Notes: generated by a model from the sequence alone, not told the origin. DNA of 64,000 nucleotides from Chromatiales bacterium (GCA_024679535.1 JAIBDF010000001.1:21748-85747); one strand, 5' to 3'; positions 46,734 to 63,910 are shown, counted from the stretch's first letter. Program-made: numbers and translations.

Positions 46734-46776
46734 ATACTGTTGTATATTTCATTTTTCGCATTGGGTCTGGTTTTTT

Positions 46777-47421: not shown

Positions 47422-47840
47422 AACTTAGCTTGCGGCAACGCACGCAGCCGGAAGTTAACCTGACGTCGCTCATCGATGTCGTGTTGTTGCTGTTGATCTT
47501 CTTCATGGTGTCGACGAGCTTCGTCAAGCAGTCGCAGATCACCATTCGACTGCCAGAGGCGGAAAGCACAGCCATCGTTGAAGAAGTGCCGGAGCAAATC
47601 GATATCATGATTACGGCAACCGGAATGTATCTTGTCAACGGGCGAGAGCTCATCAACAATCGCGCAGAGACCATCAGGAATGCGCTGCAGAAAACGTCCG
47701 GTGGCAACAACAATTTGCCCTTGACGATCAGTGCCGATGCCAACGCCAAACATCAGGACGTTATCACGGCCATGGACGTTGCAGGCAGACTCGGTTTTAC
47801 CCAGATAAGTATCGCAACGGTCAACGATCCGGTTGAGTGA
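47418..47840 (+). CDS. exbD: ExbD/TolR-family biopolymer transport protein
   Basis: 140 aa. NLTSLIDVVLLLLIFFMV TM segment with the conserved Asp. ATGA overlap with exbB. Confidence 0.85.
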   Translation: MKLSLRQRTQPEVNLTSLIDVVLLLLIFFMVSTSFVKQSQITIRLPEAESTAIVEEVPEQIDIMITATGMYLVNGRELINNRAETIRNALQKTSGGNNNLPLTISADANAKHQDVITAMDVAGRLGFTQISIATVNDPVE

Positions 47841-49605
47841 CGTGAATAAATCCATTGGTCCCGAGGTTAAGGTCGTTTACGGCCGCCTGTGGCGATACGT
47901 AACACCGCACAAGCTGATCGGCTTCATCGCGGTTATCGGCATGGCTGCCACGGCAGCCATTGAGGCAGCGCTCGTCTACCTGCTGCAACCGTTAATGGAT
48001 GACGCTCTGGTTGCCAAGAATCTCGAGCAGGCCCAATGGATACCGATCGCGTTCATGGGCATTTTCGTGTTGCGTGGCCTGTCTGGCTTCGCGACGGAAA
48101 TGTCGCTGGGATGGATCGGGCGGCGCGTCATTTCCGATCTGCGCTGCCACGTGTTCGATAAGTTCCTGACTTTACCCATCCGCTTCTTCGACTCGCAGGC
48201 AGCAGGGCCGCTTTTGTCGCGTATGACATACAACGTGGAAATGGTGGCGGAGTCCGTGACCAGCGTCGTAACGATTGCGGTGCGCGATACGCTGACGGTC
48301 ATTGCGGCATTCGGGGTGATGATCTACCACAGCCCGACATTGACCATCTTCGTTGCCATCCTGTTCCCCATCGTCGCAGTGATCGTGCGTCTGCTTGGCG
48401 TTGCTTTCAGGCGTTATAGCAGTCGCATTCAGGATTCGGTTGGCGACGTGACGCAGGTTAGTGACGAGGTCATTCGTGGCAATTGGGTCGTCAAGGCATT
48501 TGGCGGTTACAAGTACGAACGCGATCGTTTTGCCGAAGCTGACGGCCGTAATTTCAAACAGAACATGAAACTAATTCGCGTGCGCTCGCTCGGGGTGGCC
48601 GTGACGCAGGTCGTCTTCGGCTTCGGTATCGCCCTGGTGATTTACTTGGCTGGCCGGCAATCAATCGAGGGCGTGCTTAGTCCGGGACAGTTCATTTCAT
48701 TCTTCTCGGCCATGATGTTGATGCTGCAACCCGTACGCCGCATAACAAATGTGAATGCCACCCTGCAACGCGGCGTCGCTGCGGCCGACAGTTTGTTCAT
48801 GATTCTTGACCAGGAGAATGAGCAGGACAAGGGGCGCTTCGAGAAAGAACGTGCAGATGGCGACGTCGTGTTTGACCACATTGACTTCACGTACGGAGAC
48901 GCTGAGGATCCGGTCATCAGAGACCTGCGCGTGGAGGTGGCGGCGGGAAGCACCCTCGCGATCGTCGGTCATTCCGGCAGCGGCAAGTCCACACTCGTCA
49001 GCCTCCTGCCACGCTTCTACGACGTCGACGCAGGTGAGATACGTCTTGATGGCATTCCCATCACTGAATATTCGTTAGCGAGCCTGAGGAACAACATCAG
49101 TGTCGTCAGTCAGGATGTCGTACTGTTCAACGATACGATTCGCGCCAACCTCGCTTACGGACAACTCGAGCCGCCGTCAGAAGAGGAACTGCTCAAGGCC
49201 GCCGAAGCCGCGCATGTTCTTGAGTTCGTCAATGACCTTCCGCTGGGGCTGGATACGATCGTTGGCGACCGTGGGGTGTTGCTTTCGGGCGGTCAGCGAC
49301 AACGCATCGCGATTGGCCGCGCGCTGCTGAAAAATGCGCCGGTGCTGATCCTCGACGAGGCAACATCGGCTCTCGATACGCATTCGGAGCGCCGCATTCA
49401 GGATGCACTGAACGCATTGATGGAAAACCGCACCACACTGGTAATCGCGCATCGCCTGTCGACAGTGGAGAAGGCCGACCGGATTATCGTGCTCGACGCG
49501 GGACGCATCGTCGAGTCGGGCAACCATGCCCAGCTGCTTGCAAAGAACGGACACTATGCAGCGTTGTACCGCATGCAATTCAGCGAAGAGACGCAGGACG
49601 AGTGA
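47833..49605 (+). CDS. msbA: lipid A export ATP-binding/permease protein MsbA
   Basis: 590 aa. 6-TM ABC exporter domain plus an NBD (GHSGSGKST, LSGGQRQR, ILDEATSALD). Lies upstream of lpxK. Start is TTG 47833 or GTG 47842. Confidence 0.85.
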   Translation: MSDVNKSIGPEVKVVYGRLWRYVTPHKLIGFIAVIGMAATAAIEAALVYLLQPLMDDALVAKNLEQAQWIPIAFMGIFVLRGLSGFATEMSLGWIGRRVISDLRCHVFDKFLTLPIRFFDSQAAGPLLSRMTYNVEMVAESVTSVVTIAVRDTLTVIAAFGVMIYHSPTLTIFVAILFPIVAVIVRLLGVAFRRYSSRIQDSVGDVTQVSDEVIRGNWVVKAFGGYKYERDRFAEADGRNFKQNMKLIRVRSLGVAVTQVVFGFGIALVIYLAGRQSIEGVLSPGQFISFFSAMMLMLQPVRRITNVNATLQRGVAAADSLFMILDQENEQDKGRFEKERADGDVVFDHIDFTYGDAEDPVIRDLRVEVAAGSTLAIVGHSGSGKSTLVSLLPRFYDVDAGEIRLDGIPITEYSLASLRNNISVVSQDVVLFNDTIRANLAYGQLEPPSEEELLKAAEAAHVLEFVNDLPLGLDTIVGDRGVLLSGGQRQRIAIGRALLKNAPVLILDEATSALDTHSERRIQDALNALMENRTTLVIAHRLSTVEKADRIIVLDAGRIVESGNHAQLLAKNGHYAALYRMQFSEETQDE

Positions 49606-50642
49606 GCGCCGGCCCGGTTTATGCCTGGATTCATCGCGCCTGGTATGAGGACGCGCCGTCGGGCTGGTTGCTACTGCCCCTGAGCGGACTCTACTGGCTG
49701 GTTCTCTACGTGACGCGACTATTGCGCGCCTGTGGCGTACTCCGCACGCACAAGGCAGCCGTGCCCGTCGTGATTGTCGGCAATATCACCGCTGGGGGAA
49801 CAGGCAAGACGCCAACCGTGCTTTGGCTGGTGCAGGAGCTTCGAGCTCGCGGTTTCAGTCCCGGCATCGTGAGTCGCGGCTATGGCGGCAGTAAGGCGGA
49901 TTCCTCCATGCGCGTGGAGCCTGATACAGACGCAGCGGTCGCGGGTGACGAACCCGTACTGCTGGCCAAACGCGGCCAATGCCCTGTGGTTGTCGACCCG
50001 GATCGCGTGCGCGCGGCGCAAATGCTTGTTGACGACGGTGTAGATGTCATCGTTGCCGACGATGGTTTGCAGCACTATCGACTGGACCGCGACTATGAGA
50101 TTTGCGTGATCGATGGCGCGCGGGGCCTCGGAAACAGGCGGCTACTGCCGTCCGGGCCGCTGCGTGAAAGTGCCCGGCGCCTCGAGAGCGTAGAGCAGGT
50201 GCTGGTAAACGGGGAGCTGCGGGGATCCGAGTACGAGCTGACGACAGGCGAGCAGAATGCAATTTCCTTCGAACTCGTCGCGACCGACGTCTGCCGGCTG
50301 AATGGCTCGCTGGCGCGGCCCATAGGGCGCTTTGCCGGAACCACCGTGCATGCTGTTGCGGCAATAGGCAATCCACGCCGTTTCTTTGATTTATTGCGTG
50401 CGCAGAATATCCAGGTCATTGAGCATGTTTTCCCCGATCATGCTGTCCTTGCACGCAAGGACTTCGAGTTCGGTGATGATTTCGACGTCTTCATGACGGA
50501 GAAGGATGCCGTTAAACTGCGGCGCGATGTAACAGACAAACTCTGGTATGTACCCGTGAATCTCAGTATGGACCCGGTGCTTGCGGCACCGCTTATCGAA
50601 CAGATTGAATCGCGCCTGCGGACGGGGCAGGATGTCGCATGA
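49602..50642 (+). CDS. lpxK: tetraacyldisaccharide 4'-kinase
   Basis: 346 aa. P-loop GNITAGGTGKTP. The GTG start overlaps the msbA stop. Confidence 0.9.
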   Translation: MSAGPVYAWIHRAWYEDAPSGWLLLPLSGLYWLVLYVTRLLRACGVLRTHKAAVPVVIVGNITAGGTGKTPTVLWLVQELRARGFSPGIVSRGYGGSKADSSMRVEPDTDAAVAGDEPVLLAKRGQCPVVVDPDRVRAAQMLVDDGVDVIVADDGLQHYRLDRDYEICVIDGARGLGNRRLLPSGPLRESARRLESVEQVLVNGELRGSEYELTTGEQNAISFELVATDVCRLNGSLARPIGRFAGTTVHAVAAIGNPRRFFDLLRAQNIQVIEHVFPDHAVLARKDFEFGDDFDVFMTEKDAVKLRRDVTDKLWYVPVNLSMDPVLAAPLIEQIESRLRTGQDVA

Positions 50643-51382
50643 CCGCATTCGTCGTAGTTATTCCCGCTCGCTACGCGTCGACCCGTCTGCCCGGTAAGGC
50701 TTTGCTCGATATTCATGGCAAGCCGATGCTGCAACACGTCTACGAACGGGGCATCGAGAGCGGCGCCAGCGAAGTGGTGATCGCCACGGATGACGAGCGC
50801 ATTGCGGCAGCTGCGGAGGCATTTGATGCCGTTGTCTGCATGACCGGCGATCATCATCAGTCAGGTACCGAGCGTATCGCGGAAGTGGCGGACCTGCTGA
50901 ACTGGAACGACACTCAGGTCGTCGTTAATTTACAGGGTGACGAACCGGCCATGCCGCCAGAGCTTATCGATCAGTGCGCTGCATTGCTCGATGATGCGAA
51001 CGTGGATATCGCTACCCTCGCTTCGCCATTTCTTTCGCAACAGGACTTTCAGAATCCCAACTGCGTAAAGGTCATCCGCAACATTCTCGATCATGCGATC
51101 TACTTCAGCCGTGCGGCGATTCCGTATCCGCGAGACGCGAGCAGCGATAAACGTGCCGCCAGGGCGGCGCTGCACCACCATGGTATCTATGCGTATCGTT
51201 GCGGCGTTCTACGCGCCTTTGTTGATGCTTCACCCTCTGAGCTTGAGGTTTGCGAGCAGTTGGAGCAGTTGCGCGCGCTGTCGCTCGGCATGACGATCGC
51301 CGTTGGTGTGCCTGCCGTCAGGCCGGGCACCGGTATCGATACGCCGGAGGACCTGGAGCGGGCCCGTCAGGAGAAACCATGA
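50639..51382 (+). CDS. kdsB: 3-deoxy-manno-octulosonate cytidylyltransferase (CMP-KDO synthetase)
   Basis: 247 aa. VIPARYASTRLPGK and NLQGDEP motifs. ATGA overlap with lpxK. Confidence 0.93.
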   Translation: MTAFVVVIPARYASTRLPGKALLDIHGKPMLQHVYERGIESGASEVVIATDDERIAAAAEAFDAVVCMTGDHHQSGTERIAEVADLLNWNDTQVVVNLQGDEPAMPPELIDQCAALLDDANVDIATLASPFLSQQDFQNPNCVKVIRNILDHAIYFSRAAIPYPRDASSDKRAARAALHHHGIYAYRCGVLRAFVDASPSELEVCEQLEQLRALSLGMTIAVGVPAVRPGTGIDTPEDLERARQEKP

Positions 51383-52227
51383 CCCACGATAGCAAGCCGT
51401 TGGACCAACGCGAGGTCGACGAAACGGGGATTCACTGGGATCAGGATATGAGCTACGACTCATACCTGTCGCTGGACAAATTGCTGGATAGTCAGAAGCT
51501 CGTTACCGGTGCGCACGATGAAATGATGTTCGTGATCATTCATCAGGCCTCCGAACTGTGGATGAAGCTTTGTATCCACGAAATCGGCGCGGCCATGCGT
51601 GAAGTTGAAAACGATAATCTGGGTGCCGTCTTCAAGATGCTGTCACGCGTGTCTCGTATCCAGGGGCAACTGCGACAAAGCTGGGCAGTGCTTTCTACCA
51701 TGACACCGGCGGACTACCTTGCCTTCCGCGATGATCTCGGACAAAGCTCGGGCTTTCAGTCCTTTCAGTATCGCGAGATCGAATTCGCATTAGGCAACAA
51801 GAACGCGGCACTTATCGAAGTGCACCGCAAGAATCCGCAGCGCTATGCACGTCTGCGCGAGGTTCTGCATGCCCCGAGCTTTTATGATCTGTGCCTGGGT
51901 CAGCTTGGGAAAAAAGGTTTCGATATTCCGTCGGACTATCTGGACCGTGACTGGTCGCAGCCTTACGCACCCAGCAAAGCAGTCGAGGCGGCCTGGGCCC
52001 GGGTATATTCTGATCCGTCGAAATACTGGGACTTGTATGAACTGGCGGAAAAACTCATCGATCTCGAACAGGAGTTCGCCATGTGGCGCTTCAGCCACAT
52101 GAAGACCGTGGAACGCATTATTGGATACCGGCAGGGTACCGGCGGCACCAGCGGCGTCGCGTTCCTTGAGAAGGCGCTCAAGCTGCGCTTTTTCCCCGAA
52201 CTCTGGACAGTCAGGTCTGAGCTGTAG
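51379..52227 (+). CDS. kynA: tryptophan 2,3-dioxygenase
   Basis: ATG 51379 (ATGA overlap with the kdsB stop), 282 aa. HDEMMFVIIHQASELWMKL, GFQSFQYREIEFALGNKN, WRFSHMKTVERIIG (proximal His context) and GTGGTSGVAFL. The track start at 51250 is rejected. Confidence 0.88.
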   Translation: MTHDSKPLDQREVDETGIHWDQDMSYDSYLSLDKLLDSQKLVTGAHDEMMFVIIHQASELWMKLCIHEIGAAMREVENDNLGAVFKMLSRVSRIQGQLRQSWAVLSTMTPADYLAFRDDLGQSSGFQSFQYREIEFALGNKNAALIEVHRKNPQRYARLREVLHAPSFYDLCLGQLGKKGFDIPSDYLDRDWSQPYAPSKAVEAAWARVYSDPSKYWDLYELAEKLIDLEQEFAMWRFSHMKTVERIIGYRQGTGGTSGVAFLEKALKLRFFPELWTVRSEL

Positions 52228-54604
52228 GCATCGGCTTGACCAGGTAGTACGCGACAGCTGGTAGCAACAGCAATGCGCCGAGCATGTTCCAAAGGAACAT
52301 GAAGGTCAGCATGAGGCCCATGTCAGCCTGGAACTTGATCGGCGAAAATATCCAGGTACCTACACCAATCGCGAGCGTCAGCCCGGTAAATGCGACGGCG
52401 ATGCCCGTAGTCTGCAGCGCTTTCAGGTAAGCCGTATATAACGACAGTCCGCGCTTCAGGTAGCTCTCCATCTTACTGAAGATGTAGATGCCATAGTCCA
52501 CGCCGATGCCGACGCCCAGGGCGATTACCGGCAGCGTTGCGACCTTTACGCCAATACCCAGCATAGCCATCAGCGCCTGACCGAGAACCGATGTCAGTGC
52601 CAGCGGGACGATAATACAGGCCACCGCACGCCATGATCGGAAGGTAAGGAATACCAGGAAGCTGACGACGCTGTAGACCAGCGCCAGCATTTGATATTGC
52701 GCCTTGCCGATCACGATATTGGTGACGGACTCGATACCGGCGTTGCCGGCGGCGAGTGCGAATTTGATATAGCCGGTGTCGCCTGCTGCGAGACTGAATT
52801 CCATGTCGTCACTATCGTACTCGGCGGCGAAAGCCTCAGCAGCGCCGATGACGACACTCAGGGTCTCTGCCTTGTGGTCGTTGAGGAAGATCAGAATCGG
52901 CACCATGCTGCAGTCGGTATTGATTAACGTGGTCGGCACCGAGCTAAGCGAGTTGTTGAGGATGTAACGATTACGACTGAGTGTGTACCACTTCGGGTTA
53001 CCCTCGTTCATCGCCATGATGACGCGTTTGGAGACGTCGACCAGCGAGATCACTGACTGCACGCCCTCGGTGTTCTTCAGAACTTCCTGAAACCGGTCTA
53101 CGGCTGCGACGGTTCTGTACTCGCCGCACTGTTGGGGCGCGGTCTGCACCATCGTTACGAAGACATCGGTGCTGGTTGTGTAATTCTCAGTGAGGAACGC
53201 GTTGTCCAGGTTATAGCGTGAGTCCGGCCTCAATTCAGGGGCGCCTGCATCCAGGTCACCAATGCGCAGATCTTTACTGCCGTAGAAACCGAATCCGAAC
53301 AGGACGATCGCAATACCTATCATAATCATTGCATACGGCGGTTTCGTAAAGCTGGCGACGAGCGGCCAAAGCCTGGACGGATTGTCGCGCTTGCGCTGCA
53401 GGTAACGCAGTGACGACTTTGACAGTCCGACATACGACATCAATACCGGCAGCAATATGAGATTGGTAAAGATCAGTACGCCTACGCCGATACTGGCCGT
53501 TATCGCGAGTTCCTGGATGACCGGAATCTTGATGACGATGAGCGTAAGGAAGCCGATGCCATCGCTGACAAGGGCGACCAGTCCAGGAATGTACAGCGCG
53601 CGAAAAGCGCGTCTTGCGGACCAGAAAGAGCCGGCGCCGAAAAAGAAACGAACGGCGATGTTGTTGATGATCTGTACGCCGTGGCTGATACCGATAGCGA
53701 AGACCAAAAAGGGTACCAGCATGGAGTAGGGGTCAAGGCCAAAGCCCAGCGTGTGCAGAAGGCCGAGCTGCCAGACCACTGCGATGGTCGAACAGATCAC
53801 CGGGACAAACGTGGCGAAGACGCATCGCGAATACACGGTGAGCAGTACGAGTGTTATGGCCAATGCCACACCAAAGAACATGGCGACGAGGGTTGCGCCT
53901 TCGATCAGGTCGCCAACGACCTTGGCAAAGCCCGTGACGTGAATCTTTATCCGGTCGGTCTCGTACTTGTCCCGAACGAGGGACTCAATGCTCCTCGAGA
54001 AATCCCGGTAGTCGAGTTTCTCCCCGGTCTCCGCATTGATGTCTGTCAGCGGTGCGATAATGATCGCGGATTTGAAGTTATTGGCGACCAGGCGGCCAAC
54101 CTGCCCGGAGCGCAGAATATTCAGGCGCAGCTGATCGAGTGATTCCTCGGAGCCGTCGTAGCCGTTGGGTATTACCGCGCCGCCGCGAAAGCCTTCCTCG
54201 GTGACCTCGCTCCATCGCACATTGGGCGTCCAGATAGACTGCAGGCCCGACCGGTCAACGCCCGGTATATAGAAAACCTCGTCGTTAATGAGTCGCAGTG
54301 CTTCCTGGAATTCCTTGTCGAAGATATCGCCGTCGGTCGTTTCAACAATGATCCGTATCGAATTGCTGAGACTCGCAAGGTCTGCCTTGTTGTCCAGGTA
54401 GTTCTGGATATACGGGTGCGACGTCGGAATCATCTTCTCGAAGCTGGCGTCGGGTTCGATCTGTAAGGCCTGTGAGCCGAAAAACGCGGTCAGCAGGACG
54501 AAGATCAAGATGACCGGAATCCGGTTCTCGAACAGGACTCGCTCGGCCAGCGGTGGACGTTCCTTGTCAGAGAGTCCGGTCTGGCGATTGACTACATCAT
54601 TCAT
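52211..54604 (-). CDS. RND-superfamily transporter, MMPL/HpnN-like (12 TM helices, two large periplasmic loops)
   Basis: ATG 54604 (MNDVVNRQ) overlaps the upstream stop within ATGAATGA. Two repeats, each of one TM helix, a ~190 aa loop and five TM helices. GLDPYSMLVPFLVFAIGISHGVQ and VIALGVGIGVDYGIYIF are typical of this exporter family. Confidence 0.8.
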   Translation of the reverse strand: MNDVVNRQTGLSDKERPPLAERVLFENRIPVILIFVLLTAFFGSQALQIEPDASFEKMIPTSHPYIQNYLDNKADLASLSNSIRIIVETTDGDIFDKEFQEALRLINDEVFYIPGVDRSGLQSIWTPNVRWSEVTEEGFRGGAVIPNGYDGSEESLDQLRLNILRSGQVGRLVANNFKSAIIIAPLTDINAETGEKLDYRDFSRSIESLVRDKYETDRIKIHVTGFAKVVGDLIEGATLVAMFFGVALAITLVLLTVYSRCVFATFVPVICSTIAVVWQLGLLHTLGFGLDPYSMLVPFLVFAIGISHGVQIINNIAVRFFFGAGSFWSARRAFRALYIPGLVALVSDGIGFLTLIVIKIPVIQELAITASIGVGVLIFTNLILLPVLMSYVGLSKSSLRYLQRKRDNPSRLWPLVASFTKPPYAMIMIGIAIVLFGFGFYGSKDLRIGDLDAGAPELRPDSRYNLDNAFLTENYTTSTDVFVTMVQTAPQQCGEYRTVAAVDRFQEVLKNTEGVQSVISLVDVSKRVIMAMNEGNPKWYTLSRNRYILNNSLSSVPTTLINTDCSMVPILIFLNDHKAETLSVVIGAAEAFAAEYDSDDMEFSLAAGDTGYIKFALAAGNAGIESVTNIVIGKAQYQMLALVYSVVSFLVFLTFRSWRAVACIIVPLALTSVLGQALMAMLGIGVKVATLPVIALGVGIGVDYGIYIFSKMESYLKRGLSLYTAYLKALQTTGIAVAFTGLTLAIGVGTWIFSPIKFQADMGLMLTFMFLWNMLGALLLLPAVAYYLVKPMPTAQT

Positions 54605-55784
54605 GCTCGTCGCCTTCATCGATGATCGACACACCACCAAAACCGAGCAGCAGCAGCTTGTCGTCACTCGTTTTTGTGACGCCGCTATAGACGCTGTTGC
54701 CGGAGGTCGACACTTTCTTAAACGTAGTGCCATGATCATTGCTGGTGAGCACGGCGCCGGCAGATCCAACAAGGACGACCGCGCCATCTTCGCCGGTCAT
54801 GCCGTCCAGCAAGGTCCGCTCATCGTTGGTGGTGACGGCGGACCATGTGTCGCCATCATCCGTTGAACGGAACACGTTACCCCTCAGTCCAAATACGAGT
54901 AGCCCGCCGTCGTGCGTGGCGATGGCTCCAAAAAATGATCCCTGGTATGGCGAGGCGGGACGATCCCAGGTCTCGCCCTGATCGCGCGAACGCAGGATTA
55001 TCCCGGCTTCACCGGCAACCAGTAAGGTTCCGGAAACCGAACGGGCAATGCCATACAGGTGATAATTATCCGGGTTATCGAGCCGCTCTGAAATCAATTG
55101 CCAGGTCGCACCGCTATCGTTGGTGTGCAACAGGATTCCATAGGCCCCCAGTGCATAACCATTGCGTTCGTTTTCGAACCAGACATCGAGGAGGGGCATA
55201 GTGACGCCTTCGTCAAGCGCGGCTGAAGCGTCCTCGAGAGCGAAGAGTGCGTCGTCGAGCGCCCACTCAAGGTCCTCCAAGGTCTCGGGTGAGGCCAGGC
55301 TGATCTCACTCCGCAGCTGATCGACCTTTTTCTCCGCTGCGTCTGCGGACAAACGAGCAACATCGACCCCGGTCAGCTTGGTCTGCCAGCTCTGTCCGGC
55401 GTCAGTTGAGCGCAGCAGCACGCCGTCATGCGCCGCTGCCCATGTGTTTCTTTCGCCGGAGAACGTTACTGCCGTCAGTGCCAGTGAGACGGGCACCTGT
55501 GCATGTGTCCAGGAGTCACCACTATCGTCCGAGTAAAGAATATGGCCCTGTTCGCCAGCGACCAGGATGCGGTTCCCATTTGTTGCGGCATCGAGAAGCA
55601 GCGCACTGGAGGCGGTATCGGTCTGCAGGGCAGGCAGCATTTGAAAACGCGTGGTGTTGCCGTGGCTGGTAGCGATATAGCCGGCGAAGGCAAACAGGGC
55701 GACCCCGATCTGCAGAACGATCCGTGAATTGCGGCGGGCCAGTGCGGCCCGCCGTCGTGCTTTCTGGAGGGGGCTAACGAACAC
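54597..55784 (-). CDS. membrane-anchored BNR-repeat beta-propeller protein (Ycf48/HCF136-like)
   Basis: 395 aa with a GTG start. N-terminal TM anchor IVLQIGVALFAFAGYIA. Six SxDxGxxW-type motifs (SDDSGDSW, STDAGQSW, TNDSGATW, SRDQGETW, STDDGDTW, SNDHGTTF). A ~50 aa acidic helical insert lies between blades. Confidence 0.75.
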   Translation of the reverse strand: MFVSPLQKARRRAALARRNSRIVLQIGVALFAFAGYIATSHGNTTRFQMLPALQTDTASSALLLDAATNGNRILVAGEQGHILYSDDSGDSWTHAQVPVSLALTAVTFSGERNTWAAAHDGVLLRSTDAGQSWQTKLTGVDVARLSADAAEKKVDQLRSEISLASPETLEDLEWALDDALFALEDASAALDEGVTMPLLDVWFENERNGYALGAYGILLHTNDSGATWQLISERLDNPDNYHLYGIARSVSGTLLVAGEAGIILRSRDQGETWDRPASPYQGSFFGAIATHDGGLLVFGLRGNVFRSTDDGDTWSAVTTNDERTLLDGMTGEDGAVVLVGSAGAVLTSNDHGTTFKKVSTSGNSVYSGVTKTSDDKLLLLGFGGVSIIDEGDEHE

Positions 55785-57129
55785 CTGAACGTCGCAGTGC
55801 CGCTGGCGTGTAGTCCCGTTCCTTCACCTGGAAGTCCCAGTTGTATTGATAGCCCTTCAACTCATTACCCAGTCCGATCGGCAGGTGCCGTCCGGAGATC
55901 AGGTCGTGCGATGTTTCAACCGCGTACCACGGCACGCCGACCTGGTAGTGGATATTGTTATGGGCTTCTTTAACGCGCCATAGCTCGCCACGGCCGTCGT
56001 AGAGGTCGGCGATAGTGATTTGCCAGGTGTCTTCATCGACGTAGAACGTGCGCTTCGCGTAGATGTGGCGCTCGCCGTCCTTCAATGTTGCCTCGACCAC
56101 CCAGACCCGGTGCAATTCGTAGCGCAGATACTCGGGGTTCATATGACCGGTAAGGACGATGTCTTTGTACCTGAGGTCCTTGTTGCCGAGCCTGAACGAG
56201 TTATAGGGAACATAAAGCTCCTTCTTGCCCAGCAGCTTCCAGTCGTATCGATCGAGGGCGCCGTTGTACATGTCGAGATCATCGGCAGTACGGAGGCCGT
56301 CGGATGCATTGCCTGGTCCGTCATAGGCGACATCGGGGGCGCGGCGAACCCGGCGTTGCCCCGCGTTATAGACCCATGCTGCGCGAGGTTCCGCCACCTG
56401 GTCGATATTCTCATGCACGAGAAGTACGTCACCTTCGAGGCGTGCAGGCGCTTTGATGGCCTGCTTGTAATAGAACAGGCGGTTCGGCGGAGGCGTTCCG
56501 AGGTATTGCGCGAACGTGAGCTGGTCTTGAAACACCACCGGGCTGAATGAGCCGTTAGCCTGCACAGGAATCTGCGTATAGCTGCGTTGGACGCTGCCGC
56601 CACGATAACGAAGCACGTGGTTCCATACGATCTCGACGCCCGATTTGGGAATCGGGAAAGGAACGTAGGAGTCCACATTGACCAGCCCGTTGCCGTCGGG
56701 TGTGGTTTTGGCAGTCAGGGCATCTTTCTTAACAGCCTCGTACATTGATGCCGGGTAGGCTGCGGTGCGATGCGTTGTGTACACCGGCATGCGGTAGGTG
56801 TCCGGGTAGCGCTGCAGGAGTGCAATCTGTCCTGTGGAAAGATTCTCCTTGTACTGTTCGAAATTCTGCGCGGTGATCGTGAACAGCGGTTTCTCATTTG
56901 GGAACGGATCGACCAGCGGTTCGCCCTTAACGTAGCCGGCGGGCAGGTCAGTCTGGCCACCGGTCCACGCGGGAATGGTACCCGCGGCATTGCCGGCTCG
57001 TTCTGCGCCAATCGGCGTAAGTTCATCACCGCCCAGGCTGGCCGCCTGTTCGGCAGTGAGTTCCGCGAACGCGTTCTGCGCCAAAAGGCCAAGCGCAGCC
57101 AGGATTGTAGTCTTTGTAAGTGCTTTCAT
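55774..57129 (-). CDS. DUF1329 family periplasmic protein (LolA-like 'outer membrane lipoprotein-sorting' fold)
   Basis: 451 aa with signal peptide ...LLAQNAFA. ELTPIGAERAGNAAGTIPAWTGG near the N-terminus is typical of DUF1329. Paired with DUF1302. Confidence 0.75.
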   Translation of the reverse strand: MKALTKTTILAALGLLAQNAFAELTAEQAASLGGDELTPIGAERAGNAAGTIPAWTGGQTDLPAGYVKGEPLVDPFPNEKPLFTITAQNFEQYKENLSTGQIALLQRYPDTYRMPVYTTHRTAAYPASMYEAVKKDALTAKTTPDGNGLVNVDSYVPFPIPKSGVEIVWNHVLRYRGGSVQRSYTQIPVQANGSFSPVVFQDQLTFAQYLGTPPPNRLFYYKQAIKAPARLEGDVLLVHENIDQVAEPRAAWVYNAGQRRVRRAPDVAYDGPGNASDGLRTADDLDMYNGALDRYDWKLLGKKELYVPYNSFRLGNKDLRYKDIVLTGHMNPEYLRYELHRVWVVEATLKDGERHIYAKRTFYVDEDTWQITIADLYDGRGELWRVKEAHNNIHYQVGVPWYAVETSHDLISGRHLPIGLGNELKGYQYNWDFQVKERDYTPAALRRSGVR

Positions 57130-57154
57130 GGTGTTGGTGCTCCTGGAATTCGGT

Positions 57155-59083
57155 TCAGAAACTGACCGAGAAAGATACGGACAGGAAATCGCGGTCCACG
57201 ATCGTGTTGTAGTCGCCGCCTGAGAATGACGTGTAGGCCAACGAGCCAGTGTACCGATTAAGGTATTCGGCTCCGAGGCTCAGGGTCAAGGCCTTACTGC
57301 CCTCATTGAAATTCGAGTTGGGCGAGTAGCCGTCAACGTCATGTGACCACGCGAAACTGGGTGTCAGGTTAACGCCTGCGAACACGTCGTTGTACGCGAG
57401 GCCCGCACGCACGCGGTATCCCCAGGAGGAATCAGTCACGTAGCCGTCTGTCGTACAATTCCTGGCATTGTAATTTGGTGGCGCTACACCGGCCAGCGCA
57501 TTGCCTTCCGAGCAGGTTATGAACTCGCCCGGGGGAAGGGGCGGAGACGGCAGTGGGATCGGTTCGAAGTAACCCTGACCATACGTCGGCGAGCGGCCAT
57601 AGCGCTGTACGGATTGTTCCGGCAGATCGCCAACCCAGTTGGCGCCAATCTCGGCGGCAAAGGACAGACGACTGGCGCCGAGGACCTGGTCAAAGAAGCG
57701 AATGAATGTGACCTGCGCTTGCGTAACCGGCAGCAGGTCGTAGCCCGATGCAGCACTGCCTGGTCCTACCTCCAGAATCCTGGGTAGTGCGGTCGACCAG
57801 GGTGCCAGGCCAACGGCGCCCTGCAGGATTTCGGTGGTGTTGATCTGCACCGGGAAATCAGGCCGGTAGCTGACCTCTCCTGATAGCGCGAAACCGGCCA
57901 GGTTGGTTGCAAAGCTCACGCCGAACAGCTCGATATCTTCCGGGAACTCGGTGAAGTACTGCGGGTTGCCACTAACCGTAACGTCGCCAATTTGCAGGCC
58001 AGCAAAGGGATTGCCCGGGATAAAGGGCCAGGGCCGATCGCCCAGTGCCGCAGTCAAAGCGTCAAACAGCGGAGGCGGGATTGCAGCGTCGGGAACCAGT
58101 GAGTTCGAAGAGCTAAAGCCGCCCAAGTAGGGTATACGGCTGTGGTAGTTCATGTAGTACAGCCCGAATTCAGAGCCGGCTAGCTCCTCGGCGAAATAGC
58201 GAAATGCCACGCCAAACTGACCGCTATCGTCTGGTTCGATATCGGGCTGGCGGCTAATAAACAGCCCATTTAACATGTTGGCCCGGTCGCTGAGCTGGCC
58301 GTTCAGAGTCACAAAATTGCAGCCTGTGCCAGCAACGTCTGCGGTTGAAAAGTAGGTACCGCAGGCATCGATAACCGTCTTTTCCCATTTGAGCTGGTAA
58401 AACGCCTCAACGCTCAGCGCGTCGGTCAGCCCAGCCGCCATCGTTACCATTGCAATGGGTAACAGACCTTCCTTGATCTCGGCGCCGGGGCGCCGGAATG
58501 CGGAAACGTCGACGGGATTAATCGAGTTGATACCATTCTGGATAAAGGTGCTCTCACCCCAACTCGTGACCTGGCGGCCGACGCGGAGATCCAGAGGCAT
58601 GTCATTCTCGCCGAGGTAAAATGTGCCGTAGACAAAAGCGTCCAGGAGTTCTATACCGGACGCCTGAGCGTAGTCGTCAAACCCGCTGTCGTCGAGGGTT
58701 CGGTCGGGCGTGTAGAGATTTGACGACGTGCCATGTGGCCGTTTGCCGTTCTCGAGTTCCTCGTCGTACCAGTACTTGCCACGCAGGAATAGTCCAAAGT
58801 CCCCCTTGCGGAGCTCAAAGTCGTGTACGCCCTTGAGGATCAGCGAATAGATGTCGCCGTCCTTGTAGTTCAGGTCGCCGTCGTCGGCGGTGCCTGTAGA
58901 GGCCGTACCCAGCCCCGGCGCGCTGCCGGGCGTGACCAGTATCGGTTCCATCTCCGACATGCGCCAGCTGGATCCCAGCGATATCTGGGAATTAAAGCTG
59001 CCTTCCCAGTCTCCCCACACAAATTCGCCTGCTACGGCCGGCACGGTCAATACACTTGCAACGATTGCAAGTGAACCTGACAT
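57155..59083 (-). CDS. DUF1302 family putative outer-membrane beta-barrel protein
   Basis: ATG 59083 gives the signal peptide MSGSLAIVASVLTVPAVA. GDWEGSFNSQISLGSSWR is the family N-terminus. Alternating beta-strand pattern throughout. The terminal ...VSFSVSF is an aromatic OMP-like end. Confidence 0.75.
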   Translation of the reverse strand: MSGSLAIVASVLTVPAVAGEFVWGDWEGSFNSQISLGSSWRMSEMEPILVTPGSAPGLGTASTGTADDGDLNYKDGDIYSLILKGVHDFELRKGDFGLFLRGKYWYDEELENGKRPHGTSSNLYTPDRTLDDSGFDDYAQASGIELLDAFVYGTFYLGENDMPLDLRVGRQVTSWGESTFIQNGINSINPVDVSAFRRPGAEIKEGLLPIAMVTMAAGLTDALSVEAFYQLKWEKTVIDACGTYFSTADVAGTGCNFVTLNGQLSDRANMLNGLFISRQPDIEPDDSGQFGVAFRYFAEELAGSEFGLYYMNYHSRIPYLGGFSSSNSLVPDAAIPPPLFDALTAALGDRPWPFIPGNPFAGLQIGDVTVSGNPQYFTEFPEDIELFGVSFATNLAGFALSGEVSYRPDFPVQINTTEILQGAVGLAPWSTALPRILEVGPGSAASGYDLLPVTQAQVTFIRFFDQVLGASRLSFAAEIGANWVGDLPEQSVQRYGRSPTYGQGYFEPIPLPSPPLPPGEFITCSEGNALAGVAPPNYNARNCTTDGYVTDSSWGYRVRAGLAYNDVFAGVNLTPSFAWSHDVDGYSPNSNFNEGSKALTLSLGAEYLNRYTGSLAYTSFSGGDYNTIVDRDFLSVSFSVSF

Positions 59084-59551
59084 TATTCTGCATCGCCAAT
59101 TCACTTTGGAATTCCTCTTGGTTATTCGACTATAAGTTGCTTTGAAACGCTCAATTCGGGCAATTCATGATGGCTTTGTTGTTTTTTGCCCGGTCTCCGC
59201 AGGGATTCGGCTCCGAATGGGCAATGAAGTCAATACGGACTTTTTCGGACTCCGCCAGTCGTCATATGTGCGCCAGGGAAGTAGTGTCTATCAATCGGGG
59301 CGGATTTTGGCCGGAGGTCGACAGCCATATGCGCGAAGCTACGTATGCTTGTCAGCGCGACACTATGGGCCGGACTCGGAATCCATGCGTAGTGAGTTGA
59401 GAATCCGCTGGCTACTGGTCTGTGTGGGGAACTTCGGCTGCTCGCCGACGCCCTCGGGCGGTACCCGGGAAACGCTGCATCCTGTTGCCAGGGCACTAGG
59501 TACTAGCCCGAATGGAAGCGGAAATTCAATTACGGCATAAATAACAAGGGA

Positions 59552-60643
59552 TTGACTCGGGCTTGCGTAGAAGGACGGTGCGAGATGGATTGTTCGCGGT
59601 CCACGTATCTGGAAATGGGGGAGGGCGCAATGGCCGCCCGACTCGCGTTGCTGGGCCTGGATGGGGATGACGCAAAGGCAAGCGCTGCGTTGCTGCAGCA
59701 ACGTGTTATTCGCCCCGGCGTTGATACGATAATCGACGAGTTCCTTGGGTGGTTGTCCGGGATCGATCAATTCACCCGCATGGTCGCCGAACATTCGACG
59801 ACCGATAGGATGCAGACGATGCAGAAGCGTTACCTGCTCAGTCTCGGAGTGGACTTCAATACGCGCACGTATTTTGAAGATCGCATGCTGATCGGAGAGG
59901 TACACCAACGCATGGGGGTCTCACAGAGCCTCTATCAATGTTCAATTCGACGTCTCCAGGAGCTGCTGATCGATGCAATCCCTGAGGATATGAAGGCACA
60001 CCCCCCGAGCTTTCATGAACTCATCAGTTTCATTCTCAGAATTTCAGCGTTCGACATGTCGCTCGCAGTAGAAAGCTATTGCAATGCGAGAGTCTCCGAT
60101 TTGCAGGATTCGCTCAAGACGCAGCGTGATGAGAGTGAGCGCTGGCGGGAGCTCTCGCACAAGGATTCGCTGACGAACCTCCACAACCACTCGTTTTCCC
60201 GCTATAACCTGGAGCAGGCCCTGGAACAGAGCAGTGCCGATGGTCAGCCGTTGTGCGTCATGATGGCTGACGTAGATCATTTCAAACAGATCAACGATAC
60301 CTACGGTCACCTGGCGGGTGACCGGGTGCTTCGAATAGTGGCAGCTCGCATACATTCGGTTGCACGCAGTGGTGATGAGGTCGGGCGCTATGGCGGCGAG
60401 GAATTCCTTTTCATTCTGAAAAACACGCCACTTGATGCGGGCCGTGAGGTAGCGGAACGTGTACGTGCGCATGTTAATGGGGACAAGATCCAAGGCGGCG
60501 GCGCGTCGCTTGATGTGACAGTCAGCATTGGCATTGCACAGGCGCGTCCCCATGAAACTGTCAATTCACTGATTGAGCGGGCCGATACGGCCCTTTATGC
60601 GGCCAAATCCGCGGGACGTAACTGCGTCTTTGTTCCAGATTGA
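59552..60643 (+). CDS. globin-coupled sensor diguanylate cyclase (GGEEF)
   Basis: The N-terminal sensor-globin pattern is IIDEFLGWL ... KRYLLSL ... YFEDRMLIGEVHQRMGV (proximal His context, as in DosC AEVHARIGI). The C-terminal GGDEF domain has the I-site RSGD and an active RYGGEEF at 60392-60406. The start is ambiguous: TTG 59552, ATG 59585, 59615 or 59630. Confidence 0.7.
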   Translation: MTRACVEGRCEMDCSRSTYLEMGEGAMAARLALLGLDGDDAKASAALLQQRVIRPGVDTIIDEFLGWLSGIDQFTRMVAEHSTTDRMQTMQKRYLLSLGVDFNTRTYFEDRMLIGEVHQRMGVSQSLYQCSIRRLQELLIDAIPEDMKAHPPSFHELISFILRISAFDMSLAVESYCNARVSDLQDSLKTQRDESERWRELSHKDSLTNLHNHSFSRYNLEQALEQSSADGQPLCVMMADVDHFKQINDTYGHLAGDRVLRIVAARIHSVARSGDEVGRYGGEEFLFILKNTPLDAGREVAERVRAHVNGDKIQGGGASLDVTVSIGIAQARPHETVNSLIERADTALYAAKSAGRNCVFVPD

Positions 60644-60691: not shown

Positions 60692-61171
60692 ATGAATTCA
60701 CGGCCACGCCTCTCAATACTGTTCGTTTGCATGGGCAACATATGCCGCTCGCCGACCGCGGAGGGCGTGTTTCGATATCACGCAGAACAGGCGGGACACG
60801 CTGAACGCCTGCGCATCGATTCAGCGGGCACCCATGCCTATCACACTGGCGAACCGCCCGATCGCAGGGCACGGGCCGCGGCAGAACGTCGTGGCATGTC
60901 GCTGGAGGGTATTCAGGCCCGGCGAGTGATCGCCGAGGACTTCGAGCTGTTCGATTTCATCATCGCAATGGACGAGGACAACCTGGAACGGTTGCGCCAG
61001 GAAGCACCCGCTGAGCATCAGGCGAAGCTGCGCCTGTTCCTGGAGTTTGGTGATTCGAGCGAACGGGAAGTGCCAGACCCATACTACGGTGGAACAGCCG
61101 GATTTGAGCGTGTACTGGATCTCGTGGAAGAAGCGTCCCGAGGTTTGCTCGGGACGCTTTTCCGTGACTGA
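60692..61171 (+). CDS. ptpA: low-molecular-weight protein-tyrosine phosphatase
   Basis: 159 aa. ILFVCMGNICRSP (CX5R P-loop) and DPYYG (Asp loop). Confidence 0.9.
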   Translation: MNSRPRLSILFVCMGNICRSPTAEGVFRYHAEQAGHAERLRIDSAGTHAYHTGEPPDRRARAAAERRGMSLEGIQARRVIAEDFELFDFIIAMDEDNLERLRQEAPAEHQAKLRLFLEFGDSSEREVPDPYYGGTAGFERVLDLVEEASRGLLGTLFRD

Positions 61172-61174
61172 TGT

Positions 61175-63910
61175 CTAGTCCTGGCCGGGTTCCGCCGGCT
61201 TAGTTTCCGGCTTGGGTGCCGGTGCTGGTTTTTCAATCTTGGGTTCGGGTGTTGCCGCAGGTTTTGATTCCGCTTTCGGTGGCGGCGCCGGCTCGGCTTT
61301 TGGCGAAGCCTTCGGCTTCTCGACAGGCTTGGCTACCACCGGTAATGAAGGCTGTTCCCACGGCAGCAGTTTCGGCTTTCCGCCGGTCCCGTTGCCATCT
61401 GCGGCTGGCTTGGACTCGGCCTGCGGCTTGGACTCGGCCTTGGGCTTGGACTCGACCTGCGGCTTGGACTCGACCTGCGGCTTGGACTCGGCCTGCGGCT
61501 TGGGCTCGGCCTTGGGCTTGGACTCGGCCTGCGGCTTGGACTCAGCCTTGGGCTTCGGTTCAGTCTCAGCCCTCGTCTCTGCTTTCGCACCCGGATTTGC
61601 TTCCGTCTTGTCAGCAGCAGGCTTCCTGCGGCGACGTGGCTTCGGCTTGCTCTCGGTGTCAGCGGTGCGTTCCGCATCGGTGCGTGCGCGTGGCGGCCCT
61701 GACGGTTTCTCGCTGGCCGGAGCAGTGTCAGCCGGCGTTTGCTCCGGTGCCTGTTGCTCCTGCGACGGCTTTGCGGGAGTCTTCTTGCGAGGCGCCCGCT
61801 TCTTAGGCGTCTCGGCCTGCGCTGCCGATTCCTGCTGCGGTGCCTCGTTTGTCTGTGGCTGCGTGTCAGCCGTCTGCTCTGGCTTATCTTCGCTACGCCG
61901 GCGACGACGCCCGCCACGACTACGACGACTCCGTGATGAACGTTTCGGCTCGTTCTTGTTCTCGTCGCCTTGATCCGTGCGCTTTTCAGGCAGCTGCTGT
62001 TGCTGGCCTTCTTTTTGCGCCGGCTTGCGGCGCGCGCCAGTCTTTTTGGCAGTCTTCTTCGAAGCGGCTTTCTTCGATGCGGTCTTTTTCTGTGTCGGCT
62101 TGCGCTGCCCGCCACGACTCTCGCTGCCACGGCGCTTTGCCTTCTGGCCCCGGCCACCATGACTCTGCTTGCCGCCTTTGCTGCGGCGTGACTGATTCTG
62201 CTCCTCGTCCGCATCGTCGCCCTTGAACATCGACACGATGGAGGCGAATAGACCCTTCTTCTTCGCTTTAGGCTCGGGCGCCGGCTTCTGACGCTTGGGT
62301 GCAGGCTTGGACGGTTTCAATGTGCCGACCACTGGCGCTTCAATCGCTTTGCGCTCCAGGATGGCCTGTGGCGATTCTGGCTCCGGTGCCGAATCGGCGA
62401 GTGAATAACTTACGCCCGTGTTCTCGGGCAAATCCGTCTGGTCATCGCGAACACGACGCACCTCATAGTGTGGCGTTTCGAGCAATGGATTAGCGACGAG
62501 CACAACCTGCGTGTCGTTGCGGTCTTCCAGATTCTGTACCCAATCCCGTTTTTCGTTCAGCAGGTACGTGGATACCTCAACCGGCAGTTGCGCAATAACC
62601 TTGGATGTCCGTTCCTTGCGCGCTTCCTCACCGACGAGGCGAAGAATAGCGAGCGCCAGCGATTCAACACTGCGGATAGTGCCGAAGCCCGAGCAGCGGG
62701 GACAGGTCATGTGTGACGATTCGCCAATAGATGGACGCAGACGCTGGCGTGACATCTCGAGCAGGCCAAAGCGGCTGATTTTGCCGATCTGTACGCGCGC
62801 ACGATCCTGGCGTACCGCTTCGCGTAGTCGATTCTCTACATCGCGCTGGTGTTTTGAAGGGCCCATGTCGATGAAGTCGATGACCACGAGTCCACCCAGG
62901 TCGCGTATACGTAACTGGCGGGCAACTTCGTCGGCGGCTTCCAGATTTGTGTTGAGCGCGGTGGCCTCGATATCACCACCCTTGGTTGCGCGGGCGGAGT
63001 TGATATCGATGGAGACCAGTGCCTCGGTGTGATCGATGACGATGCTGCCACCGGATGGCAGGTGCACCGTGTGCGCGAAGGCAGATTCGATCTGCGATTC
63101 GATCTGGAAGCGCGTGAACAGCGGCACCGGATCGACGTAGTGTTTTATCTTCTTGATGTTGTGCGGCATCGTCTGTTCGACGTGCTCAACGGCGTCTTTG
63201 TACGTTTGCTCGTCGTCGATCAGGATCTCGCCGATCTCGTTGGTCAGGTAATCACGCAGGGCGCGGACCACGGAATCGCTCTCGCGGTAGATCAGGAATG
63301 GTGACGGTCGTTCGAGCACGACATTCAGGATGGCCGTCCAGACCGTCAGCAGATTCTCGAGGTCCCAGGCCAGTTCTTCGGCGCTGCGATCAATGCCCGC
63401 TGTCCGCAGGATGACACTCATGCCATCGGGAATGACGATTTCGTTCAGTGACTTTCTCGCCGCGTCGCGATCTTGCCCGACGATGCGCCGTGAAACGCCG
63501 CCGGAGCGCGATTTATTCGGTTTGAGGACGATGAAGCGGCCAGCCAGGCTGACGAATGTTGTCAGTGCTGCGCCCTTGTTGCCACGCTCTTCCTTGTCGA
63601 CCTGGACGACGATGTCCTGGCCTTCCTTGAGCACGTCCTTGATATTGGTCTTGCCGCTGGACTTTGCGTCCTTGACGAAATACTCGCTGGAGATTTCTTT
63701 TAATGGCAGGAAGCCGTGGCGATCGCCACCATAGTCGACAAACGCGGCTTCGAGGCTGGGCTCGATGCGCGTGATCTTTCCTTTGTAGATGTTGGCTTTT
63801 TTGCGTTGGCTAGCCGGTGCTTCGATATTGAGATCGTAGAGGCGTTGGCCATCGACCATCGCCATGCGCAACTCTTCTTCCTGAGTCGCATTGATTAGCA
63901 TTCTTTTCAT
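61175..63910 (-). CDS. rne: ribonuclease E
   Basis: 911 aa. N-terminal S1 and catalytic domains ([21 protein letters not shown], the DNase I-like region, Zn-link CPRCSGFG). Amphipathic membrane-targeting-like helix [14 protein letters not shown] (about 62219-62263). The C-terminal half is Arg-rich with a Pro/Lys/Glu-rich repetitive scaffold. Confidence 0.95.
61405..61565 (-). repeat. about nine tandem copies of an 18-bp unit inside rne, encoding (S/P)KP(Q/K)(A/V)E hexapeptides
   Basis: On the plus strand, CTGCGGCTTGGACTCGGC variants repeat head to tail. The translation is [50 protein letters not shown]. Confidence 0.9.

Follow-up and report, generated by a model that had tools for sequence, protein, structure and literature searches.

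The window analysed here, a stretch of 64,000 nucleotides from a Chromatiales bacterium (GCA_024679535.1 JAIBDF010000001.1:21748-85747), carries four consecutive minus-strand genes (52211-59104) which encode, in this order, a DUF1302 outer-membrane barrel, a DUF1329 periplasmic protein, a Ycf48-like BNR propeller and a transporter belonging to the superfamily known as RND (resistance-nodulation-division). Judged by its families and gene order, the locus is another copy of the four-component HAE3-RND cassette of the PhnJKLM/AmeABCD type, since every feature of those systems that could be tested here (the four families, their adjacency, their order and the size of the RND protein) is present, and a relative in the Pseudomonas putida group provides an indirect tie in sequence. 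The four-gene arrangement is not a matter of chance, as the same order recurs in 23 of 35 related loci over five phyla. We propose that the cassette would hand hydrophobic molecules outward, driven by protons, from the RND-propeller pair to DUF1329 and on to the DUF1302 barrel, a scheme to which we give about an even chance of being correct. Two features go beyond the literature found, namely invariant motifs in the fourth and tenth transmembrane segments (TM4 and TM10) of the RND protein and an alpha-helical hairpin in the propeller which marks one subclade of the family. The features of the cassette are the following.

57155-59083 (ATG start, 642 aa) or 57155-59104 (GTG start, 649 aa), minus strand: DUF1302 outer-membrane beta-barrel, PhnJ/AmeA equivalent (PF06980)
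55774-57129, minus strand: DUF1329 periplasmic protein with putative C-terminal LolA-like domain, PhnK/AmeB equivalent, 451 aa (PF07044, PF17131)
54597-55784, minus strand: Ycf48-like seven-bladed BNR beta-propeller, PhnL/AmeC equivalent, GTG start, 395 aa (PSII_BNR)
52211-54604, minus strand: RND transporter of MMPL/HAE3 type, PhnM/AmeD equivalent, 797 aa (MMPL)
55212-55370, minus strand: acidic antiparallel alpha-helical hairpin predicted by AlphaFold2 (AF2), propeller residues 139-191, between blades 2 and 3
55665-55721, minus strand: propeller N-terminal hydrophobic segment, residues 22-40 (hydropathy)
53681-53686, minus strand: RND TM4 Ser307-His308, candidate proton-relay position (invariant in alignment)
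52493-52498, minus strand: RND TM10 Asp703-Tyr704, candidate proton-relay pair (invariant in alignment)
59105-59551, unstranded: divergent intergenic region of 447 nt between the cassette and a globin-coupled diguanylate cyclase gene (blocks conserved with the relative L003)

Layout, protein families and relatives of the cassette

An earlier note on this DNA had described four minus-strand genes packed as a single unit, and both the listing of open reading frames (ORFs) and the reading of their junctions agree with this. DUF1302 and DUF1329 are separated by a gap of 25 nt, DUF1329 and the propeller overlap by 11 nt, and the propeller and the RND gene overlap by 8 nt (ATGAATGA), with the stop codon of the propeller overlapping the start of the RND. 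This is tight operon packing, with overlaps of the translational-coupling type. The same DNA is present in the public metagenome-assembled genome (MAG) GCA_023954975.1, where independent gene calls give the same four products with the same lengths and place the DUF1302 start at ATG 59083. However, GTG 59104 is the more likely start, because an AAGAGGA Shine-Dalgarno sequence, conserved in L003, lies 9 nt upstream of it and the longer protein would gain a basic n-region (MNWRCRI) in its signal peptide; the stretch between the two starts (59084-59104, minus strand) also matches L003 base for base. The promoter or promoters of the cassette presumably lie within 59105-59551, where strongly conserved blocks are common to the window and L003, a relative of 82% identity. 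A scan for consensus promoters and terminators gave results at background level. Rfam returned no match at gathering threshold in the whole window, nor in a permissive scan of the upstream intergenic region, and no cyclic di-GMP (c-di-GMP) riboswitch was found near the cassette in the Rfam search despite the adjoining diguanylate cyclase gene. Paralogues of the four genes were not found elsewhere in the window.

Profile searches with hidden Markov models, suggested in the earlier note as a check on its four family assignments, support all of them in Pfam. The first protein, which had been described as a barrel with a signal peptide and an aromatic ...VSFSVSF end, matches PF06980 (DUF1302) with full-length coverage (E-value 1.6e-174), and its translation begins with a signal peptide ending ...PAVA before GEF and closes with ...DFLSVSFSVSF and a terminal Phe, as described. 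This RDF-x-S...F ending is conserved across the family; a sequence search of the PDB returned no DUF1302 relative. The second protein, called LolA-like and placed after a 25-nt gap in the same description, matches PF07044 (DUF1329; E 2.1e-149) and, on residues 314-393 only, PF17131 (LolA_like; 37.8 bits, above the cut-off of 30 bits), and carries a signal peptide ending ...AQNAFA before E. The DUF1329 family profile gave weak, remote matches in the PDB to the LolA-like structures 9tp6 (E 0.002), 3bk5 and 4z48. DUF1329 is also the most conserved component of the cassette: in tblastn searches with the window proteins its identity across phyla is 49-56%, copies in Verrucomicrobiota and Acidobacteriota included, with 44-57% for the RND and about 30-37% for the barrel and the propeller. 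It is proposed to act as a carrier of hydrophobic cargo or as a plug of the barrel.

The fourth protein had been read as an RND transporter with 12 transmembrane (TM) segments and of the MMPL/HpnN type. This family call holds (Pfam MMPL, E 2e-22), and the hydropathy profile agrees with 12 TM segments and with two loops of about 190 aa in the periplasm. The score against the HpnN model TIGR03480 is 52.3, under its threshold of 751.85, and the protein similarly falls far under the NCBIfam cut-offs of MmpL3 (NF052608, 18.9 against 1400), BstA and the HAE1 pumps, and scores 56.6 against 874.7 for TIGR00833. The HAE1 models match the TM8-12 region only, with an E-value of about 1e-3. The best NCBIfam match is TIGR00921 (HAE3; E 1.7e-40), at 138.8 bits against a cut-off of 351.9, and this pattern of scores agrees with a place in the HAE3/COG1033 lineage and with AmeD, which has been reported as a "distinct lineage within HAE3". 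Among solved structures the nearest relatives, each of them remote, are MmpL3 (E of about 1e-6), HpnN and MmpL5. When the protein was examined for a relay of the MmpL3 type, Asp703-Tyr704 was found in TM10 and Ser307-His308 in TM4. The TM10 motif GIGVDYG and the TM4 motif G(I/V)SH(G/A/S) that contain these residues are each invariant in 35 of 35 aligned family members, and the TM10 Asp-Tyr aligns with the Asp-Tyr of the GIAIDYG motif of MmpL3. The invariance of both motifs fits a role in proton coupling.

The third protein matches the Pfam family PSII_BNR (Ycf48) with an E-value of 1.7e-22 and contains six Asp-boxes, at residues 85, 126, 221, 266, 307 and 348. Its AF2 model has seven blades, with a mean pLDDT (predicted local distance difference test score) of 81.7, and the top Foldseek matches of the model are the Ycf48 structures 2xbg and 5ojr (E about 2e-17, TM-score 0.73); its score against the Ycf48 equivalog NF010237 is below threshold (81.8 against a cut-off of 326). 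Ycf48 itself attaches to a membrane complex at its lumenal face during photosystem II assembly. The propeller had been described as GTG-started and membrane-anchored, with six motifs and an acidic helical insert. The start codon, the motifs and the insert were confirmed, but not the anchoring: the hydropathy peak of 1.85 at residues 22-40, where AF2 places a helix of low confidence (residues 5-37), is followed by A-T-S and then H, a possible signal-peptidase site, and most relatives have plain AxA signal peptides. The N-terminus could be a signal anchor, or else a long signal peptide that is cleaved off.

A census of gene neighbourhoods, likewise suggested in the earlier note, was made by scanning a propeller alignment against 185,579 species genomes, which yielded 35 true relatives (L003-L037), and by searching these loci with the four window proteins by tblastn. 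Besides the 23 loci with the full DUF1302-DUF1329-BNR-RND order, two are cut by a contig end and compatible with it, three hold all four genes in a rearranged form (L017, L031, L033), one has DUF1329-BNR-RND with no match to DUF1302 in 6 kb upstream (L011), and six have the BNR-RND pair alone (three Pseudomonas loci, and Halomonas and two others with less than 4 kb of upstream flank each). The four genes are contiguous and on the same strand in 25 of the 35 loci, which belong to Gamma-, Beta- and Alphaproteobacteria, Acidobacteriota and Verrucomicrobiota (counted here as five phyla). The propeller adjoins the RND in 34 loci, with the RND directly downstream in 32 and the order reversed in L031 and L033; L034 ends at a contig edge. 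A search with DUF1329 gave at least 8000 candidates. The closest relatives come from uncultured Woeseiaceae and Gammaproteobacteria MAGs, and the host is an uncultured Woeseiaceae-like gammaproteobacterium of an abundant marine-sediment lineage.

The census also connects the window to organisms in which phenotypes have been recorded. L015, from the P. putida group, has the order BNR-RND-small ORF-lactonase, which matches the published description of PP_2018-PP_2021, and its RND and propeller share 57% and 38% identity with those of the window; the window RND is therefore tied to phenotyped P. putida genes. A Pfam census of 109 flanking ORFs from 31 related loci revealed no fifth partner that recurs, and the 25 commonest families include neither HlyD nor OEP; the cassette is therefore self-contained. 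Repeated neighbours are lineage-specific only: uvrA in Opitutae, pepN and NAD-glutamate dehydrogenase in Gammaproteobacteria, and a few aldehyde dehydrogenases. In L011, L020, L028, L030, L036 and L037 (Thalassolituus, Pseudomonas farris and several Alteromonadales), the gene directly upstream of the cassette, or of a BNR-RND pair, is pepN. As pepN recurs in this upstream place across several orders, this neighbourhood suggests an ancient core-genome copy of the cassette in Gammaproteobacteria, beside the island-borne paralogues of the literature. Behind the cassette, L028 has the gene of a large NAD-glutamate dehydrogenase, and the other three Alteromonadales loci have ORFs of comparable size there (about 1,600 aa, families not scanned).

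Proposed working and competing explanations

The earlier note had implied that the arrangement was new, which it is not. The same four genes were named phnJKLM in 2012 in the phenanthrene island of Delftia sp. Cs1-4, where induction of PhnJ was shown and the cluster was already reported to be widespread in Alpha-, Beta- and Gammaproteobacteria (Hickey et al.; PMC3318190), and PhnJ and PhnK have been detected in preparations of nanopods and outer-membrane vesicles (OMVs) (PMC3110197). In 2016 the four genes were found to be cofit in Shewanella, Kangiella and Pseudomonas, with "export of a cell wall component" as the proposed function (Price et al.; 10.1101/072470). Deletion of ameABCD in Castellaniella defragrans, published in 2018, lowered the tolerance to non-functionalised monoterpenes, a defect partly rescued by acetate, and raised Nile Red accumulation to an extent described as slight; the cassette was called a "tetrapartite RND transporter" of the HAE3 type, with AmeC as a proposed periplasmic adaptor or assembly factor (Puentes-Cala and Harder; PMC6394551). 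In 2019 it was placed in the AphS/R/T aromatic-catabolism regulons as a solvent-stress system (Suvorova and Gelfand; PMC6449761). It has also been reported in the almA alkane island of a crude-oil P. aeruginosa (PMC7145413) and as highly expressed in a benzene-degrading Desulfobacterota strain (PMC13101534), and these Pseudomonas, terpene, polycyclic aromatic hydrocarbon (PAH), alkane and benzene cases agree with the statement in the earlier note that the families co-occur in Pseudomonas and in hydrocarbon degraders.

Structural modelling has been added more recently. AlphaFold-multimer predictions for the P. putida homologues gave DUF1302-DUF1329 and DUF1329-BNR-RND complexes with a strong predicted contact between propeller and RND, described as a "novel substrate transport system" (Foldy 2024; PMC10866462), and an 18-stranded DUF1302 barrel has been modelled with an interface predicted TM-score (ipTM) of 0.84 for DUF1302-DUF1329 (ECLIPSE 2026; PMC13499233). 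The route put forward in the earlier note, from the RND through a LolA-like carrier to the barrel, is reasonable but is essentially this published P. putida model, and its statement that the propeller has no assigned role is superseded by the adaptor proposal for AmeC and the co-folded propeller-RND contact. It was right in that the searchable papers contain no substrate of the cassette defined by biochemistry, no solved structure of the assembly and no mechanism that has been demonstrated, and its reading is therefore not displaced by a published substrate and mechanism.

In the scheme proposed here, the inner-membrane RND would be powered by the proton gradient by way of the Asp-Tyr of TM10 and the Ser-His of TM4 and would pick up hydrophobic or amphiphilic molecules out of the inner membrane's outer leaflet or out of the periplasm. 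The propeller would sit on the periplasmic face of the RND as an accessory or docking subunit, a counterpart of membrane-fusion proteins (MFPs) or MmpS proteins, and the cargo would be handed to the LolA-like DUF1329, which would dock on or plug the DUF1302 barrel to pass the cargo into or through the outer membrane. The window copy is probably a housekeeping copy for tolerance of the envelope to hydrophobic or detergent-like compounds, and not a substrate-specific island copy, because no catabolic genes surround it. To our knowledge, every characterised bacterial RND transporter acts outward and none is known to import; the outward direction is favoured on this ground and because the phenotype of the ameABCD deletion resembles toxicity.

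Several observations weigh against this scheme. The AF2 model of DUF1329, made from an alignment of 18 sequences, has a pLDDT of only 34, too low to support a hydrophobic cavity, and the membrane anchoring of the propeller is uncertain. In Pseudomonas the two gene pairs are located apart from each other, and these pairs have opposing tyrosine phenotypes (10.1101/072470). The increase in Nile Red accumulation was small, and the literature found holds no member of the family with a demonstrated cargo, binding, transport direction or physical complex. Moreover, P. putida needs PP_0765/0766 and PP_2018/2019 specifically for growth on Tween 20 and butyl stearate (Thompson et al.; 10.1101/2020.07.04.188060), and the copies in the phn, ame, aph and alkane islands or regulons share their regulation with catabolic genes; both findings are at least as natural for uptake.

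The last of these points lead directly to an uptake system, in which the DUF1302 barrel would admit a hydrophobic nutrient (fatty ester, terpene, PAH or alkane), DUF1329 would ferry it, and the propeller-RND pair would insert it into the inner membrane for catabolism. Besides the ester phenotypes of P. putida, the location in catabolic islands and regulons (phn, monoterpene, AphS/R/T, almA) and the high expression in the benzene degrader speak for it, as do the words "substrate transport system" chosen by the Foldy authors (PMC10866462) and a Delftia DUF1329 deletion which, as cited in PMC13101534, impairs growth on phenanthrene. However, uptake would require an RND importer, of which we know none in bacteria. 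Moreover, the relief of the ameABCD-deletion defect by acetate, together with the higher dye accumulation, points to toxicity, and the window copy and many other gammaproteobacterial copies lie among housekeeping genes with no catabolic neighbours. The phenotypes in Shewanella and P. stutzeri are also pleiotropic (10.1101/072470). We regard uptake as unlikely, though a live rival.

Similarly, the cassette might be dedicated to envelope biogenesis and not to the handling of xenobiotics, and would then send one of the cell's own envelope lipids or cell-wall components out to the outer membrane or vesicles, in the manner of HpnN, MmpL3 or BstABC. This is what Price et al. proposed from pleiotropic cofitness, and the presence of PhnJ and PhnK in OMV and nanopod preparations, the endogenous lipid substrates of the nearest characterised RNDs (HpnN, MmpL3, BstA) and the identity of about 50% of DUF1329 across phyla are all in line with it. 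In the lineage of the window the cassette also lies inside an envelope-biogenesis region (lolCDE-msbA-lpxK-kdsB). However, the msbA-lpxK-kdsB adjacency is found only at a propeller identity of at least 70% and is absent in other Woeseiaceae, no lipid-biosynthesis gene recurs beside the cassette in the census of neighbours, the genes are dispensable in several species, and the multiple island-borne paralogues argue for varied exogenous cargos. Export of an endogenous component is judged about as likely as uptake.

The split loci of Pseudomonas raise a further alternative, that DUF1302-DUF1329 and propeller-RND are two independent two-gene systems which are merely often neighbours. The opposing tyrosine phenotypes of the two pairs (Price et al.) would be explained in this way, and DUF1302-DUF1329 paralogue pairs do exist with no adjoining RND. 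Against this, the pairs stay cofit even when split, in 25 of the 35 related loci, from five phyla, the four genes lie side by side on one strand, start and stop codons overlap in the window, and co-folding predicts contacts of DUF1329 with both partners (PMC10866462), which makes independence very unlikely. Still further from the evidence is a catabolic cluster with no transporter, in which DUF1302 and DUF1329 would be fatty-ester hydrolases and the propeller a glycosyl hydrolase; the esterase part was raised by Thompson et al. from the ester-specific fitness defects. The propeller is indeed often auto-annotated as "glycosyl hydrolase" and has a sub-threshold match to NF045728 (81.7 bits against a cut-off of 175). 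However, DUF1302 is a family of outer-membrane barrels, DUF1329 has a predicted LolA-like carrier domain and no hydrolase fold, the best structural matches of the propeller are non-enzymatic Ycf48 proteins, and the same group later dropped the esterase reading in favour of transport (PMC10866462). The glycosyl-hydrolase or sialidase reading of the propeller and the esterase reading of DUF1302 and DUF1329 were both rejected on grounds of fold and family, and a hydrolytic cluster is extremely improbable. Proton-driven outward hand-over remains the preferred reading of the cassette.

The propeller hairpin and the genomic surroundings

The hairpin of the window propeller comprises two helices (residues 139-162 and 166-191) which are predicted by AF2 with a pLDDT of 85-93. 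Over its length of about 53 residues (139-191) it holds 14 D/E and 4 K/R, and close relatives share many of its residues without any change, among them D171, E173, W174, L176, D178 and F181. It is present in only part of the propeller family and is confined to one of two subclades. A neighbour-joining tree of the RND proteins splits the family into two clades. Every member with a hairpin falls into one of them (Woeseiaceae-like MAGs, Thalassolituus, a Burkholderiales MAG, Cellvibrionales and Colwellia), together with the Pseudomonas lineage, which has no hairpin and a split cassette; the other is hairpin-free (Opitutae, Acidobacteriota, Alishewanella/Rheinheimera and Variovorax). The RND, DUF1329 and DUF1302 were searched for insertions or deletions that track the presence of the hairpin, and nothing convincing was found. 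Within the known cassette type, the subclade with the hairpin is a minor new variant. In the Lysobacter locus L029 (6922-9634), two tandem DUF1329 genes stand between DUF1302 and the propeller, and where the hairpin would be, the propeller of this locus carries a short insert of unrelated sequence.

A bolder reading is that the hairpin, of about 37 Å, is a functional analogue of the alpha-hairpin of MFPs which would span the distance from the RND-propeller pair to DUF1329 and DUF1302, so that the cassette would form a continuous trans-envelope machine instead of a relay with a soluble shuttle. If true, this would make the Ycf48-like propeller a previously unrecognised class of periplasmic adaptor of RND transporters; we consider it a distinctly unlikely, speculative proposal.

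Outside the cassette, the window holds the following features.

36636-51382, plus strand: core block upstream, with mfd, two LolC/E-type permeases and an ABC ATPase, DUF2062, comEC, exbB/D, msbA, lpxK and kdsB
51379-52227, plus strand: lone tryptophan 2,3-dioxygenase, between kdsB and the RND
59552-60643, plus strand: globin-coupled diguanylate cyclase (Protoglobin and GGDEF), divergent from the cassette
60692-63910: low-molecular-weight phosphotyrosine phosphatase (ptp) and RNase E (rne), on the far side of the cassette
35006-35890, plus strand: second GGDEF-domain protein, adjoining mfd

The earlier note had reported no adaptor and no TolC-like channel, and the family scan of the genes flanking the cassette agrees with it, as no MFP or TolC family was found there; a distant genomic TolC outside the window is possible. 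The 3' end of the RND gene overlaps the 3' end of the convergent tryptophan 2,3-dioxygenase gene by 17 nt. In Pseudomonas genomes lolCDE-comEC-exbBD-lpxK-kdsB-ptp-...-rne forms what we take to be a conserved core block, and for this reason the cassette, the dioxygenase and the cyclase together appear to be an insertion between kdsB and ptp in the lineage of the window only. At the insertion, no integrase, tRNA or repeat was found as a mark of a mobile element; the GC content of the inserted stretch is slightly lower, at 0.556-0.559 against about 0.58. The relatives which share the adjacency to msbA-lpxK-kdsB are L003, L004 and L083, and a link to lipopolysaccharide export drawn from this adjacency was rejected as functional evidence on account of its restriction to such close relatives.

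The content of the inserted stretch varies among these relatives. The globin-coupled cyclase travels with the cassette in varying position and orientation (upstream in L003, downstream in L083), an association which may hint at regulation linked to O2 or c-di-GMP. The tryptophan 2,3-dioxygenase is absent at this position in L004, and in L083 the slot next to kdsB is taken by an LCAT/DUF676-like alpha/beta-hydrolase, with the cyclase between the hydrolase and the RND; the slot beside the cassette is therefore variable. In a Woeseiaceae-like genome (L084:1-414), a second, different RND of the MMPL/sterol-sensing-domain type lies about 5 kb upstream of the cassette and is flanked by OmpA-like barrel genes.

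Comparison with known systems

The cassette is widespread, occurring in five phyla, recurring in islands for the degradation of terpenes, PAHs, alkanes, phenols and benzene, and being near-universal in P. aeruginosa. Once solved, it would define a fourth Gram-negative route for hydrophobic molecules, beside the Lol and Lpt systems and the tripartite pumps. To this the window adds mainly a clean, contiguous example from an uncultured marine-sediment lineage, together with two handles for tests, the TM4 Ser-His and TM10 Asp-Tyr motifs of the RND and the subclade-specific hairpin of the propeller.

Among the closest counterparts is AmeABCD, in which the four families recur in identical order (DUF1302, DUF1329/LolA-like, COG4447 Ycf48-like, and a 12-TM RND of HAE3 type with about 790 aa) and which likewise has no MFP and no TolC. 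However, ameABCD lies in a monoterpene-catabolism island, whereas the window copy stands among housekeeping envelope genes, and AmeC has 316 aa, against 395 aa for the window propeller, so that it presumably lacks the 53-residue hairpin. PhnJKLM shares the four families and their order too, but is located in a phenanthrene island, is induced by phenanthrene and has two products (PhnJ and PhnK) in preparations of nanopods and OMVs. Homologous families with genetic cofitness are also found in P. putida (PP_0765/PP_0766 and PP_2018/PP_2019) and Shewanella amazonensis (Sama_1588-1591). The Pseudomonas cassette is divided between two loci, its propeller has lost the hairpin and a LuxR-type regulator adjoins; in the window the four genes adjoin one another, the propeller has a hairpin and a LuxR gene is absent.

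The tripartite HAE1 pumps such as AcrAB-TolC resemble the cassette in having an inner-membrane component of the RND superfamily with periplasmic and outer-membrane partners in one operon, and proton-driven outward transport is probably common to both. However, as the earlier note had concluded, the architecture is different: there is no MFP and no TolC or outer-membrane efflux protein near the window cassette, its RND is about 250 aa shorter (797 against about 1000-1050 aa) with small periplasmic loops in place of large porter and docking domains, and the partners are a DUF1302 barrel, a LolA-like protein and a beta-propeller.

A parallel in architecture is offered by HpnN, MmpL3 and BstABC, which are small-loop 12-TM RNDs that hand lipids over to periplasmic acceptors with no MFP or TolC. 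BstABC in particular combines an RND with a periplasmic carrier and a protein associated with the outer membrane (PMC10942540), and MmpL3 shares a transmembrane Asp-Tyr motif with the window RND. However, the relation in sequence is remote, the partner proteins belong to unrelated families, and the window offers no hopanoid, mycolate or sterol gene context. MmpL3 also has Asp-Tyr pairs in both TM4 and TM10, whereas the window RND has Asp-Tyr in TM10 only and Ser-His in TM4.

Finally, the Ycf48/HCF136 proteins share the seven-bladed BNR fold of the window propeller and are its best structural match. The window host is not a phototroph and has no photosystem genes nearby, and, unlike Ycf48, the propeller is encoded together with an RND, has an additional hairpin and scores far below the equivalog cut-off. 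The thresholds of the HpnN, MmpL3 and Ycf48 families are thus not reached, yet by analogy the parts of the window cassette may resemble these proteins in their working principle.

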